From a virus: a stretch of DNA of 16,505 bases. Position numbers and translations under genes: made by a program. Each line of letters opens with the position of its first letter. Position 1 is the stretch's first letter. The notes under the pieces were generated by a model. The model was given only the letters and a program-made list of their open reading frames with translations. It did not search any database and was not told the DNA's origin. Below are positions 50-11,122 of the stretch, in pieces. The stretch lies in the UHGV virus genome UHGV-0075529. The stretch is one strand, 5' to 3'.

Positions 50-448
50 TTACTCAACAGGTAAGGCGCGAGGTTTTCCTTCAGGATCAACCGCGACATA
101 CTTAAATAATGCTTCTGTCGCTTTATACCGTTGCCCGATTGGTTCAGACGCTACTTTTTTCACCCACACTTCAATATTAATGCTGACCGATGTCGTCCCT
201 TTCTGGACACAGCGTGCATAGCAGCACACCACATCGCCGACCGCAACCGGCCGTAAGAAAGTCATTCCTTCAACCCGCACAGTCACTACGCGACCGTGGG
301 CAATTTCTTTTGCCAGAATAGCGCCGCCAATATCCATTTGTGACATTAACCAACCACCAAAGATGTCACCATTGGCATTGGTATCGGCGGGCATGGCTAA
401 AGTACGTAAAACAAGATCGCCCTGAGGGACGTTATGTGTTGTAGACAT
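50..448 (-). CDS. yciA: Acyl-CoA thioester hydrolase YciA (hotdog fold)
   Basis: 132-aa ORF recognised as enterobacterial YciA from the full sequence (MSTTHNVPQGDLVLRTLAMPADTNANGDIFGGW...); chromosomal, not phage. Confidence 0.9.
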   Translation of the reverse strand: MSTTHNVPQGDLVLRTLAMPADTNANGDIFGGWLMSQMDIGGAILAKEIAHGRVVTVRVEGMTFLRPVAVGDVVCCYARCVQKGTTSVSINIEVWVKKVASEPIGQRYKATEALFKYVAVDPEGKPRALPVE

Positions 449-580
449 GGTAAAACCGACTTAAAAGGAAAATCACAGGCGCGATGCTACTATGATTTTC
501 CTGAGGAGAACAGAGGAGATACAGCGCCAGCCCCGAAGGACTGGCAGTCTGGTTAGGATTTATCTTCCTGAGGCATAATA

Positions 581-750
581 CTTTAACGAGTTCTGCTTTA
601 TCGTGTTTTATTGCGTTTAAAATTATTCCCGCCCAAACCGCGCCGTTACTCACTTCATTGTTTATAACGCTTTAACGTGTTTTATTTTGTATGGTTGCAA
701 TTTACGTGTTTTGTGTACACTGCTGAGTACATGGCTCAGGGGTGTACACG
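581..750. repeat. Repeat-rich junction upstream of int (candidate attL arm sites and int promoter region)
   Basis: CGTGTTTT at 602, 676 and 705; CTTTAACG at 581 and 671; 8-bp palindrome GTGTACAC at 713-720 and again at 742-749, just before the int start. Confidence 0.3.
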
Positions 751-1932
751 ATGCTCACAGATACAAAACTTCGCAAGGCGCTTGGGAAGCGCAGAGAGAG
801 TGTGGAAGTTCTCTCAGATTCAAACGGGCTTAACGTGAGGTTAAGCATAACTGGTGGCGTAACTTTCTTCTACCGTTATCGCTGGCAGGGTAAGCCGGTG
901 CAGCTCAGCATAGGTGAATACCCAGCCTACTCATTAGCGCAGGCCAGAGACCGCAGGCAGCAGTTTCGCGCCTGGCTGAGTGAGGGTTACGATCCACGCC
1001 AGAAGGTTCTGGTTGAGAAAGCGGAAAGGATAGAGGCGCTGACGGTTGACCAGGCGTATGAGTACTGGGTAAAGCATTACTGCATTCCCGAGGGTCTGAT
1101 AAAAATCGATGCCAATACCAGGAGCTTTCAGAAGCACATTAGCCCGCGCATTGGCAGGGCGATGGTTGATCAGACAGTCAAGGCTAACTGGCTTGATGTG
1201 TTCGACGAGATGGGGCGTTCGGTTATTACTGGTGAGATGCTGTCATTAATGAAGCGCGCGTTCCGGTTCTGCCATAACCGAGGGGTGATTAAAAACAACC
1301 CGCTTGAATCCTTGCGCAGATCAGACGTTGGTATTGCAGCGAAGATGAAGGAGAGGCGACTCTCCGACGAAGAGATCAAAGTGGTTTGGGATACACTTTT
1401 CGCGCTCCCTCCATCACAGCAGCTTGTTATACGGTTCATGCTCCTGACTGGGTGCAGGGCTGCAGAAATAAGGAAATCGCGCTGGGACTGGTACAACTTT
1501 AATGAAAAGACCTGGACGGTACCGGCTGAGGATTACAAAACAGGGAAGACGATCAGGAGGGCATTGCCTGAAGTGGCGATCAGGCTACTTCAGGAGCATA
1601 AAAGAGGTTCGGTCACTAAGCACGTTTTAACACCGGCTCAGTTCCGAGATAAAGAAGACATTCCACCTACTCAGGCTCTGGTATCGACCTATTCCATGCA
1701 GGTGATCAGAAAGACAGACATGAAACAGTGGTCTCTGCATGACCTGAGACGCACCGTGGCTACCAGGCTGTCAGAACTTGGCGCGCCACCGCATGTTATT
1801 GAAAAGCTACTCGGTCATCAGATGGGTGGGGTGATGGCCAGATACAACCTGCACGACTATATGGATGATCAGCGCGAGTGGTTGGGTATCTGGCAGAATC
1901 ACCTGCAGAGCATTATTGGGTATCAGCTTTAG
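751..1932 (+). CDS. int: Tyrosine site-specific integrase (P4-like, N-terminal arm-binding domain)
   Basis: C-terminal catalytic motifs HDLRRT, LLGHQ and tyrosine in VMARYNLHDY; N-terminus MLTDTKLRKA typical of this family. The ORF track starts at GTG 742; first in-frame ATG is 751. Confidence 0.88.
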   Translation: MLTDTKLRKALGKRRESVEVLSDSNGLNVRLSITGGVTFFYRYRWQGKPVQLSIGEYPAYSLAQARDRRQQFRAWLSEGYDPRQKVLVEKAERIEALTVDQAYEYWVKHYCIPEGLIKIDANTRSFQKHISPRIGRAMVDQTVKANWLDVFDEMGRSVITGEMLSLMKRAFRFCHNRGVIKNNPLESLRRSDVGIAAKMKERRLSDEEIKVVWDTLFALPPSQQLVIRFMLLTGCRAAEIRKSRWDWYNFNEKTWTVPAEDYKTGKTIRRALPEVAIRLLQEHKRGSVTKHVLTPAQFRDKEDIPPTQALVSTYSMQVIRKTDMKQWSLHDLRRTVATRLSELGAPPHVIEKLLGHQMGGVMARYNLHDYMDDQREWLGIWQNHLQSIIGYQL

Positions 1933-2128
1933 AGGCGTTGACCTGCATTTCCCACGAAACGATCTCCGACTCTCTCCAGCGTTTTGGGTTGCCGGGGATT
2001 GTTGGTTTGGGGAAAGGGCAGGTGAAGCCAGCAGGCATTCGCTCCGGGGTGCTCCAGAAATACAGAGTGCTCCGGGAAATCTTATAGCGAGCCAGTACGT
2101 CACTGGTAAGCAGGATACTGTCATTCAT
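1913..2128 (-). CDS. AlpA-family DNA-binding protein (excisionase / prophage regulator)
   Basis: 71-aa ORF with the AlpA signature ...ISRSTLYFW...FPKPTIPG..KRWRESEIVSWE; SD GGAGA 6 nt upstream of ATG 2128; 3' end overlaps the int 3' end convergently by 20 nt. Confidence 0.65.
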   Translation of the reverse strand: MNDSILLTSDVLARYKISRSTLYFWSTPERMPAGFTCPFPKPTIPGNPKRWRESEIVSWEMQVNASKADTQ

Positions 2129-4139: not shown

Positions 4140-4363
4140 GACTCCACTCCGTAGCGCCCATTCAGGCGACCAATTTCGCTGTTAAATTTGATAAGGCTGA
4201 TGCCTAGAGGCTCGACGATTTGGTGATATTTTCGGAGGATAGGCGGGACGACTTTATTCCAGTTCGGCTTGGGCTTTGTGCGCATCGCCGCTTTCAGTTC
4301 GTCACTGCATCGCCGGGCCTGAGAGTGCAAAGCATTCTCCTGTTCGGTGGTCATTCGCTTCAT
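4136..4363 (-). CDS. Hypothetical phage protein, 75 aa
   Basis: ORF with ATGA overlaps at both ends (Dam stop and 203-aa start). Confidence 0.55.
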   Translation of the reverse strand: MKRMTTEQENALHSQARRCSDELKAAMRTKPKPNWNKVVPPILRKYHQIVEPLGISLIKFNSEIGRLNGRYGVES

Positions 4364-4911
4364 GCTGCCTCCCGCCGGGCGATAAGTTTCGCTCCGAAAG
4401 TCATTAATACGTCGCGCTCCACGAAATTGGACTCGCAGTGTGTCCGAGGGAATGGCCGCCAGATGAGCAACATACTCCCTTTATTATTTCCCGATACCGG
4501 CTTACCGGTGACCGGGTTGATGAATTCCAGCCGCCCGGCAGTGATGAATCGAACCTCGCTCGCCGTCTCGATAGCCTCACGGAACCAGCCGACGGAAGTA
4601 TCAGCCGGAACCAGCATGACGGTGCCGATCTGATTCTTGCTCTCCGCTGCGGCTTTCTTCACGAATGGCGTGATGTCGCTGTAAGGTGGGTTGAGCCACG
4701 CATAGCCTGGAATGGTGAGGTAATCGGCCCACGGAGTTTCCAGCGTATTCTGCTCTGCGGTGATGAACTTGCGGCAGAGCGCGTTATGCGGCGCTGCTGC
4801 GGCGTCCAGTTGAAAGCAGAACTCTGCATCCAGCGCGGCAAATAGAGCCGGTGGTGTGCGCCATAAATCACGCTGATCTGCTGGCGTGTTACTTCCGGTG
4901 TAATCGGTCAT
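4360..4911 (-). CDS. dam: Phage-type DNA N6-adenine methyltransferase (Dam family)
   Basis: 183 aa with the catalytic NPPY motif (AWLNPPYSD) and overall phage Dam architecture. Confidence 0.8.
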   Translation of the reverse strand: MTDYTGSNTPADQRDLWRTPPALFAALDAEFCFQLDAAAAPHNALCRKFITAEQNTLETPWADYLTIPGYAWLNPPYSDITPFVKKAAAESKNQIGTVMLVPADTSVGWFREAIETASEVRFITAGRLEFINPVTGKPVSGNNKGSMLLIWRPFPRTHCESNFVERDVLMTFGAKLIARREAA

Positions 4912-9510: not shown

Positions 9511-10188
9511 TTATGGGATGTTTAGTATTTTGGCATCAACCACAACGCCGATGATTTTGCAGTTTCCATTAATTTCTAGCATTGGATATGCGGGGTTAAG
9601 GGGCTTTAGGAAGCGTCTGCCGGCATCGATTACAAGCTTCTTAAAGGTCGCTTCGTTATCGCCTTCTAGCTTCGCGACAACCAGCTTTCCGTTGCGCGGC
9701 TCGACTTCAGGATCAACAAGTATCGCTGCTCCCTCGGGTATGCTCAGTCCAGCCGGGGAGGTCATAGAATCCCCTTTAACGTCCAGCCAGAATGAATCTT
9801 CTGAGCAGTCAACAGTCGTGTCATACCAGCGATCTATCGCTCTTCGGTGATAAGGTTCTACAGCTTCCATCCATTGCCCCGCGCTTACCCAGCTGATTAC
9901 AGGATAACTTCCTTTTGTCTCGTTCAGTCCTCGAAATGCAACGTTCGAAGGTTCTTCACTGGCGTGTAAAACATCCATCCAGCCAAAAGGCAGATCAAGC
10001 GCAGTTTCAATTTTGCGAGCCATCTTATCGCCGATATTGCGATGAGGGTTTGGTCCCAGTAGCTGGCTAAGCGCAGCCGGACTTGTCTCGATGAGCTCGG
10101 CAAACTGCGCTTTGGTCATTCCAGACTCGTGCTGACGCTTCTCGTACAGCGCTTCCAGGTTGGCTTTTCTGATTTCTTTATTTTCCAT
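9511..10188 (-). CDS. cI: cI-type prophage repressor (N-terminal HTH, C-terminal S24 LexA-like autopeptidase)
   Basis: Start taken at ATG 10188 (MENKEIRKANLEA...); C-terminal domain has the catalytic Ser in GDSM, a downstream Lys, and an Ala-Gly candidate cleavage site (SWVSAGQW). The ORF track runs to 10305 across the operators. Confidence 0.88.
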   Translation of the reverse strand: MENKEIRKANLEALYEKRQHESGMTKAQFAELIETSPAALSQLLGPNPHRNIGDKMARKIETALDLPFGWMDVLHASEEPSNVAFRGLNETKGSYPVISWVSAGQWMEAVEPYHRRAIDRWYDTTVDCSEDSFWLDVKGDSMTSPAGLSIPEGAAILVDPEVEPRNGKLVVAKLEGDNEATFKKLVIDAGRRFLKPLNPAYPMLEINGNCKIIGVVVDAKILNIP

Positions 10189-10555: not shown

Positions 10556-11122
10556 ATGCATTCACTTGCGTATCAACAGAGTACCGGACTTGAACAACGT
10601 CCGTTGATTTCGATTTATCAAAGTGTTCCGCGTAATAACCGTAAGCTAACTCGAATACGGGAGGCAGTTAAGGCCTGGCAAAAAGCTACGCCGGGCCAGT
10701 CTCAGGTTCACATTTCTCAGCTGGTTGCGAAAGAGTGGCTGGCGCGCGGCGGGAAGGGGTTGTTACTGGCAGGTTCTGAACACAACACGAAGCAGAACTT
10801 CTTCCGGATGATTAACGATCCGGGCCCGAAGAACGACAAGGGGTTGATGCTACTGATCCCCGTCATTATCGACGTGATGGCGCGGGATAACGAGAAAGTG
10901 GCGAGAGAGTTCGGTCTGGTCGCAAAGACTGAGGCCGAACTGATAGCCGAGGCCATGAAAGAGTGCACTGAAGCGCATCAGGCGAAGTTACTTGGTCAGC
11001 CGATACAACGCCTTGAGAAAGAGGTGAGAGAAGCTGCTGAAGCACTTCTGCGCTTTCTGCCCACTGAATCAATCGCCGCGGTGGTGACAAGTCTGGCCGC
11101 TATGGCGCCGGGAGTTATGTGA
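10556..11122 (+). CDS. YdaT-like protein in the CII position
   Basis: 188 aa immediately after the cro-like gene; segment KEWLARGGKGLLLAGSEHNTKQNFFRMIN resembles Rac YdaT as recalled. Confidence 0.55.
   Translation: MHSLAYQQSTGLEQRPLISIYQSVPRNNRKLTRIREAVKAWQKATPGQSQVHISQLVAKEWLARGGKGLLLAGSEHNTKQNFFRMINDPGPKNDKGLMLLIPVIIDVMARDNEKVAREFGLVAKTEAELIAEAMKECTEAHQAKLLGQPIQRLEKEVREAAEALLRFLPTESIAAVVTSLAAMAPGVM

Follow-up and report, generated by a model that had tools for sequence, protein, structure and literature searches.

Where, at the left end of the UHGV virus genome UHGV-0075529, does the bacterial chromosome give way to a prophage, which host gene was the target of integration, and what are the short repeats crowded in front of the integrase gene? 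These questions are raised by positions 449–750 of a stretch of 16,505 nucleotides from this genome (the window), which begins with host genes and continues into int and a set of phage genes. Our analysis indicates that the interval contains the left attachment site (attL) of a lambdoid prophage of about 45 kb, formed when a heterobivalent integrase (Int) joined the phage attachment site (attP) to the bacterial one (attB) in the last codons of yciB, and that the motifs with a GTGT core are probably sites for proteins of the recombination module. The element is ordinary in kind, a lambda-like prophage, and does not challenge current understanding; we did not find yciB described as an attachment site in the literature. 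A search for yciB, yciA or ispZ as a phage attachment site yielded nothing relevant: the matches for yciA concerned Tn7-like transposons, and the match for yciB concerned the import of a contact-dependent growth inhibition (CDI) toxin, which uses YciB, an inner-membrane protein, to enter the cell (PMC12607911).

The attachment site at the 3' end of yciB

To place the junction, positions 1–760 of the window were compared with 5,426 complete Escherichia coli genomes. A match was found in 5,423 of them, nearly all of which, about 5,400 empty sites, align to positions 1–576 only; the entire query, with the insertion and the start of int, is present in 18 of the 5,426 genomes, an occupancy of about 0.3%. 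The counterpart region of K-12 reads tonB, yciA, yciB and yciC, with yciB on the minus strand at what corresponds to window positions 553–1092 (L001 2053–2592, minus strand) and its stop codon at 553–555. In the window, yciA, a host acyl-CoA thioesterase gene beside the junction (50–448, minus strand; Pfam 4HBT, E = 1.6e-19; so named in K-12 and in the lysogens), is followed by the native yciA–yciB spacer (449–552), which is host DNA identical to that of the empty-site genomes. The spacer leads into the orphaned 3' end of yciB (553–576, minus strand), consisting by K-12 coordinates of the stop codon and the last seven codons; this piece stays at attL after integration, and the homology to empty sites ends with it at position 576.

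The comparison of attL, attR (the right attachment site) and attB, within the lysogen FDAARGOS_1250 and against K-12, defines the common core as TCTTCCTG (563–570). Host and phage differ on either side of it, at 562 (A in the host, C in the phage) and at 571 (C in the host, A in the phage), and because these differences bracket the exchange, strand exchange occurred within this 8-bp block. Position 571, inside the orphaned yciB tail, is phage-derived, and beyond the core identity returns at 572–576 (GGCAT). The three sites read GGATTTA-TCTTCCTG-CGGCATGTGG (attB, K-12), GGATTTA-TCTTCCTG-AGGCATAATAC (attL, window) and CTTATTTC-TCTTCCTG-CGGCATGTGG (attR, FDAARGOS_1250; left flank shown shorter as TTATTTC), and the left half of attL joined to the right half of attR gives the exact K-12 attB. 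The attL of FDAARGOS_1250 is identical to that of the window, and its prophage measures 45,103 bp from core to core. Eight more loci, drawn from IMG/VR contigs and other E. coli genomes, have an identical attR core.

The target of integration is the 3' end of yciB, neither yciA nor a tRNA gene, and the prophage rebuilds this end at the other junction by means of its P arm. In FDAARGOS_1250, yciB lies 45 kb away and is annotated with 178 rather than 179 amino acids, and the C-terminus of YciB changes from ...RHMPQEDKS* in K-12 to ...RHMPQEEK* in the lysogens. The stem-loop that natively follows yciB, a GC-rich structure at 527–546 on the minus strand (the fold of 496–556 on that strand has −20.3 kcal/mol, z −2.2), remains at attL, separated from its gene, and most P-arm variants carry a stem-loop about 95 bp from the core followed by a run of eight or nine U in the sense of yciB. 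The phage thus appears to supply yciB with both substitute codons and a substitute terminator, and the latter would also shield the prophage from read-through out of yciB. It should be noted that the C-terminus of YciB is slightly altered in lysogens, which calls for some caution.

The same junction at the yciA/yciB 3' end is occupied by integrases with 88% identity in Enterobacter vonholyi and in IMG/VR contigs, and the matching Enterobacter attR was recovered (L032). A precise attachment site in yciB, with its 8-bp crossover block, is therewith defined and is shared by the Enterobacter relatives; it is of use for annotating prophage boundaries and may provide an additional orthogonal integrase/att pair for strain engineering.

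An earlier note on this DNA, made from the sequence alone, had placed a prophage–chromosome junction within 449–750. The comparison with empty sites, set beforehand as the test that could refute this placement, locates the junction inside the interval, with the crossover at 563–570 and the end of empty-site homology at 576. The note's expectation of a matching direct repeat at the far prophage end is borne out by TCTTCCTG at both ends in FDAARGOS_1250, so the att core, which according to the note needed the other prophage end or an empty site for its identification, could be determined from both. Its choice of yciA as the flank that was hit has to be replaced by yciB, 449–552 being the native spacer between the two genes. 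The note was also right that the interval holds no tRNA-like sequence: ARAGORN found no tRNA or tmRNA anywhere in the window, and an Rfam scan of positions 1–2400 gave no credible match. Its remark that integrases of this type usually target tRNA or tmRNA genes holds for the broad P4/IntS-like architecture and fails for this branch, in which the relatives with 63% identity target sapB; since these closest relatives also target a protein gene, the missing tRNA is expected and not anomalous. Both the yciB and the sapB integrase clades of the P4/IntS-like branch are directed to the ends of protein genes, which stay intact.

Two open reading frames near the junction, 432–653 (minus strand) and 677–838 (plus strand), were discarded as spurious, being without a family match or crossing the junction in a frame other than that of yciB.

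Repeats on the phage arms

All repeat units lie on the phage side of the junction (577–750), on the P' arm of attL (571–750, plus strand). This arm, which also contains the region upstream of int, is absent from the approximately 5,400 empty sites and is kept upstream of int in Enterobacter. Word counts were compared with those in 200 dinucleotide-preserving shuffles of the 16.5-kb window. The palindrome GTGTACAC at 713–720 and 742–749 has its sole two copies in the 16.5 kb here (0.09 expected; two copies reached in 1 of 200 shuffles), as has CGTGTTTT its sole three, at 602, 676 and 705 (0.53 expected; three copies reached in 2 of 200). The word CTTTAACG occurs at 581 and 670 and in one unrelated copy at 9774, with 0.32 copies expected. 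An exact-match search thereby recovered, where the earlier note had put them, its three copies of CGTGTTTT, two of CTTTAACG and two of GTGTACAC. Its suggestion that they are arm-type or int regulatory sites gains comparative support and agrees with their position on the phage arm beside int, but they do not form three independent classes of site. A repeat search shows the short words to be fragments of longer units, namely an 18-nt direct repeat (595–612 and 669–686, 94% identical) and a 15-nt inverted repeat (713–727 against 735–749), and CTTTAACG and CGTGTTTT are parts of one longer direct repeat, GCTTTAaCGTGTTTTATT.

The clustering of these repeats in 175 bp is far beyond chance and mostly conserved among relatives. 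One might still regard them as functionless low-complexity words in AT-rich phage DNA, in keeping with the AT-rich composition of the arm and with the two CGTGTTTT copies that are not conserved in Enterobacter arms. We consider this explanation extremely improbable, as the dinucleotide-preserving shuffles rarely reach the observed counts and the positions of the motifs are kept in diverged arms and across integrase clades.

The individual copies, all on the plus strand, differ in their conservation. The first copy of the direct repeat, GCTTTATCGTGTTTTATT (595–612), a candidate arm-type or excisionase site, is partly kept in Pseudocitrobacter and not in Enterobacter. The second, GCTTTAACGTGTTTTATT (669–686), is the only one kept across genera, the arms of E. 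coli, Enterobacter and Pseudocitrobacter all having AACGTGTTTTA at +113 from the core. The third, TTTACGTGTTTT (701–712), is 12 nt long, abuts the first palindrome and belongs to the E. coli-type arm only, not being conserved in L010 and L011. A degenerate copy, ATAATACTTTAACGAGTTCTGCTTT (575–599), directly follows the core and is 76% identical to 664–688.

Downstream of these follows a triplet of related sites. The first palindrome, GTGTACAC at 713–720, overlaps the sole −10-like hexamer, TACACT (716–721), and TGTGTACACT is invariant there in all 18 aligned int upstream regions, which span several integrase clades. The middle site, GAGTACAT (725–732), begins 12 bp past the start of the first and is represented in relatives by GTGTATAC or GTGTATAT, with G.GTA.A conserved. 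The last palindrome, GTGTACAC at 742–749, lies between the Shine-Dalgarno sequence (AGGGG, 738–742) and the ATG at 751, one base short of which it ends; it is kept in all aligned regions, with a single base change in L058. The arms of Enterobacter and Pseudocitrobacter keep the block TTGTGTACACT-N3-G(C/A)GTACAT-N-(G/A)GTGTACAC-(G)-start. Even clades with integrases of only 63–66% identity and a different core (sapB), among them Klebsiella prophages and Stx2a prophages beside sapC, retain TGTGTACACT, then GTGTATA(C/T) in the middle and a last GTGTACAC that abuts the start. The GTGTACAC pair is thus kept across integrase clades.

Related motifs recur on the opposite side of the core. Eight P arms are otherwise highly diverged, to the extent that megablast aligns only some of them, and yet GTGTACA stands at −95, within a stem-loop whose stem sequence varies among the variants, followed by ATGTGT(A/T) in inverted orientation at −63 and in direct orientation at −20 to −33 (about −27). 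The repeated arm motif YGTGTW keeps its positions and is over-represented on either side of the core. The eight P arms contain 16 occurrences, where dinucleotide shuffles give 4.6 ± 1.9, and three P' arms contain 11, where the shuffles give 3.0 ± 1.5; neither count was reached in 1000 shuffles. The members of each set are phylogenetically related, so that these statistics overstate independence and significance, which itself weakens the case. A sequence resembling the binding site of integration host factor (IHF), TAACTANNTGATW at −44, is present in five of eight P arms with at most one mismatch and, read by eye, in seven of eight at two mismatches.

The integrase gene itself (751–1932, plus strand) reads away from attL and encodes 393 amino acids matching Pfam Arm-DNA-bind_3 (68.9 bits, cut-off 27) and Phage_integrase (68.6 bits, cut-off 27.1). 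Residues R236, K263, H330, R333, H356 and Y365 are invariant in the integrase alignment; by inspection and knowledge of the family we take this R-K-H-R-H-Y set to be the catalytic one. Between the yciB and sapB clades the arm domain is the best conserved part of Int, with 70% identity against 58–63% elsewhere, a pattern that fits shared arm motifs combined with differing cores. Judged from sequence, the GTGT-core motifs, that is the GCTTTAaCGTGTTTTATT repeats, the GTGTACAC / GAGTACAT / GTGTACAC triplet and the P-arm set, are most likely arm-type sites at which the Arm-DNA-bind_3 domain of Int, and possibly also the excisionase (Xis), would bind. The conserved arm motifs and the triplet upstream of int constitute a testable map.

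Recombination and the expression of int

In the mechanism that we propose, the N-terminal domain of a heterobivalent Int would read the GTGT-core motifs on both arms while the core-binding and catalytic domains work on TCTTCCTG. A bend introduced into the P arm by IHF, at about −44, would let Int bridge arm and core, and Xis would direct excision. The assignment of Int, Xis and IHF to the arm motifs, which we infer from position and conservation, should be read accordingly as a prediction. Since int is transcribed away from attL, and since prophages with this int exchange their immunity region freely, the int promoter would have to be a self-contained one within the P' arm. The sole −10-like hexamer, TACACT (716–721), would place the promoter within the first palindrome, with the middle site covering the transcription start and the last palindrome falling between the Shine-Dalgarno sequence (738–742) and the ATG at 751. 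Int and/or Xis occupying the triplet would sit on the −10-like hexamer as well as on the Shine-Dalgarno sequence and start codon and would so repress int, which by analogy may be autoregulated in the manner of KplE1 intS.

The start of int at 751 is that given in RefSeq. GTG at 742 was considered and rejected as an alternative, since it directly adjoins the Shine-Dalgarno sequence, whose spacing suits the ATG at 751 in all clades. E. coli and Enterobacter begin int with ATG, Pseudocitrobacter with GTG, and the sapB and other clades with TTG; the GTGTACAC before the start is essentially invariant in all of them.

The overlap with the −10-like hexamer, the Shine-Dalgarno sequence and the start codon could also mean that the GTGTACAC triplet is purely an operator for int expression, to which Int, Xis or some unknown dimeric regulator binds and which has no role in synapsis, leaving the GCTTTAaCGTGTTTTATT-type repeats as the only arm-type sites. 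Such an operator would agree with the distance of the triplet from the core (143–180 bp, far for arm sites), with its retention across clades that have different cores while CGTGTTTT is clade-specific, and with the 8-bp palindrome, which suits a dimeric regulator. It leaves aside, however, that GTGTACA is fixed at −95 on P arms, some 45 kb from int, and is kept there despite differing stems (L007 against L005). Furthermore, the immunity and operator regions of the window contain no GTGTACAC, nor does the rest of the window, even if one mismatch is allowed in any relevant place; the palindrome is thus no operator of immunity. We regard the purely regulatory explanation as rather unlikely and prefer the reading of the triplet as arm-type sites.

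A second alternative places the function of the palindromes in RNA. In transcripts begun upstream of 711 the two GTGTACAC copies could pair and bury the Shine-Dalgarno sequence and start codon of int, such that only transcripts from the proximal promoter would be translated. The segment 709–760 indeed folds at −26.9 kcal/mol (z −5.4), RNAalifold retains an 11-bp helix, and the flanking pairs tolerate G-U and include one in which A-U is replaced by U-A, affecting the first base of the start codon, a codon that varies between ATG, GTG and TTG. Two copies of any palindrome are, however, complementary by construction, and the covariation is weak: 7 of the 11 pairs never vary, the one doubly changed pair fails to form in 4 of 16 distinct sequences, and 21 of 500 shuffles perform equally well. 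In addition, the L058 clade breaks a palindrome pair, the first arm of the hairpin would not be transcribed if TACACT is the −10 element, and the copy on the P arm is left unexplained. This alternative is accordingly improbable in our view. A combination of both, in which the invariant TGTGTACACT ... GTGTACAC pair serves recombination proteins as DNA and as an RNA hairpin hides the ribosome-binding site and start of int, is a long shot. Were it true, transcripts entering from outside the att site would be translationally silent and only the internal promoter would yield Int; no integrase-translation gate of this kind was found in Rfam or in the literature examined.

The preferred reading of attL as a recombination site with GTGT-core motifs on both arms has to be weighed against several further observations. 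The excised attP junction, searched for in its exact reconstructed E. coli and Enterobacter types, is absent from viral and metagenome contigs, a negative that amounts to no more than absence of evidence. Two of the three CGTGTTTT copies, those at 602 and 705, are not kept in the Enterobacter arm, and on the P' arm the IHF consensus has no match with at most one mismatch. A scan of 400–2300 with the sigma-70 consensus returned no promoter, and the best candidate, TTGCAA-15 nt-TACACT, is weak. Finally, the int of Pseudocitrobacter vendiensis (L011, 86% identical) is not beside yciA and has another context, and xis accompanies int in every clade (60–100% identity), so phyletic patterns cannot assign motifs to Int as opposed to Xis; an attempt to separate the two kinds of site in this way was given up for that reason.

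The Pseudocitrobacter locus was initially taken for a tandem attP-like junction, but it has upstream genes of chromosomal or cargo appearance, and it could represent a tandem element or an alternative site. Upstream of its int lie a transthyretin/HIUase-like open reading frame (495–914), an odd tRNA-like sequence with a 4-base anticodon (1408–1488) and an open reading frame of 176 amino acids without a Pfam match, followed by a hairpin homologous to that of the E. coli P-arm variant L007 and by a core-like TTACTTTTCTTCCTGAAGAATAC.

Known systems and the rest of the element

The nearest integrases in the phage collection are those of the sapB Stx2a and Klebsiella prophages, with 63–64% identity over the full length. 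The Stx2a phages of E. coli CC119 (O165:H25) integrate at sapB, where a 13-bp attB overlaps sapC (PMC10132054). As in these prophages, int adjoins attL and reads away from it, a homologous xis is convergent, a GTGTACAC / GTGTATAC / GTGTACAC triplet abuts the start codon, and integration uses a short core at the end of a protein-coding gene. The sapB prophages differ in their sapB/sapC target, their core, the lack of CGTGTTTT repeats and the TTG start, and the core-binding and catalytic regions of their Int are only 58–63% identical to those of the Int studied here. The right end of a sapB Stx2a phage record was considered as a source of a P arm and rejected, as it is not an att junction.

For KplE1 it has been shown experimentally that the intS promoter overlaps attL, that the arm site P'1 overlaps the −10 box and that IntS and TorI repress intS (PMC2951348). 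With the IntS-TorI systems of KplE1 (CPS-53), HK620 and Sf6 the element shares the integrase domain family, an int that reads from attL and the separate transcription of int and excisionase gene. Unlike it, KplE1 targets the argW tRNA gene; IntS is only 25% identical, and the KplE1 attL, read by eye, is without the exact motif words of this element.

A comparison with lambda is instructive for the layout of the arms. The attP of lambda is bound by a heterobivalent Int at the arm sites P1, P2 and P'1–3 and carries IHF and Xis sites. The predicted arrangement here is similar, with repeated arm motifs flanking a short core, three close P' sites and an IHF-like site between arm sites and core on the P arm, recognized in this case from sequence alone, and the gene order is lambdoid too. 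The int gene of lambda, by contrast, is oriented toward att and transcribed from pI and pL, under sib retroregulation; attB is intergenic there, and the arm domain of Int belongs to a different Pfam family from that of the present Int. Phage 21 and the element e14 integrate at the 3' end of icd and carry substitute terminal codons that keep the gene intact. The choice of a protein-gene 3' end and the provision of substitute codons are shared with them; however, these have integrases of lambda type and a much longer duplication, whereas only two or three codons and the stop are replaced here. The integrase of P4, which targets the leuX tRNA gene, is the founding member of the present architecture, with repeats flanking the core and int beside att.

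Convergent with int lies xis (1913–2128, minus strand; 71 amino acids; PHROG 1553, E = 5.3e-29), and the 3' ends of the two genes overlap by 20 nt. This overlap (1913–1932) is kept in all clades examined, and antisense transcriptional interference is possible. Further downstream the PHROG assignments are lambdoid, with an exonuclease, a RecT-like protein, a CI-like repressor, a CII-like activator, an O-like initiator and a DnaB-like helicase, giving the window the lambdoid order int, xis, recombination genes, repressor, CII-like and O/DnaB-like genes; the related 45-kb prophage carries Q, lysis, head and tail genes. The early-left region also encodes a DNA methyltransferase-like protein (PHROG 111; 4360–4911, minus strand), and a CII-like/YdaT-domain protein is encoded beside the repressor–cro pair (10556–11122, plus strand).

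Through int and xis the window agrees with the FDAARGOS_1250 prophage except for a single difference, at position 14; at about 2196 the two abruptly part. The prophages are mosaic, and the best complete E. coli genome covers 53% of the window. The int-xis-att module acts as an exchangeable cassette among mosaic lambdoid prophages. Among 50,697 phage records no sequenced free phage had a matching int or attP, the best reaching 64.6% at the DNA level and 63.7% at the protein level.

The far end of related prophages shows some variation in gene content. Just inside attR, about 150–900 bp from the core, L005–L008 and L031/L032 encode a peptidase associated with the SOS response, and most of them also have a gene for a Y-family polymerase or an S24 peptidase near attR; these SOS genes are preceded by a LexA-box-like CTG-N10-CAG (ACTGAAAGTATAGGGCAG). 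The variants L003 and L004 have other small open reading frames at this position. The FDAARGOS_1250 prophage carries a ghoS-like type V antitoxin gene (L002 27709–27987), with no annotated ghoT among the listed features. At its other extreme, the window starts with the last bases of tonB (ending at about position 10), convergent to yciA, which ends at 50; between the two, at 18–48, AAAAGCCTCCGACCGGAGGCTTTT forms a perfect hairpin flanked by runs of A and T, the classical bidirectional tonB terminator.

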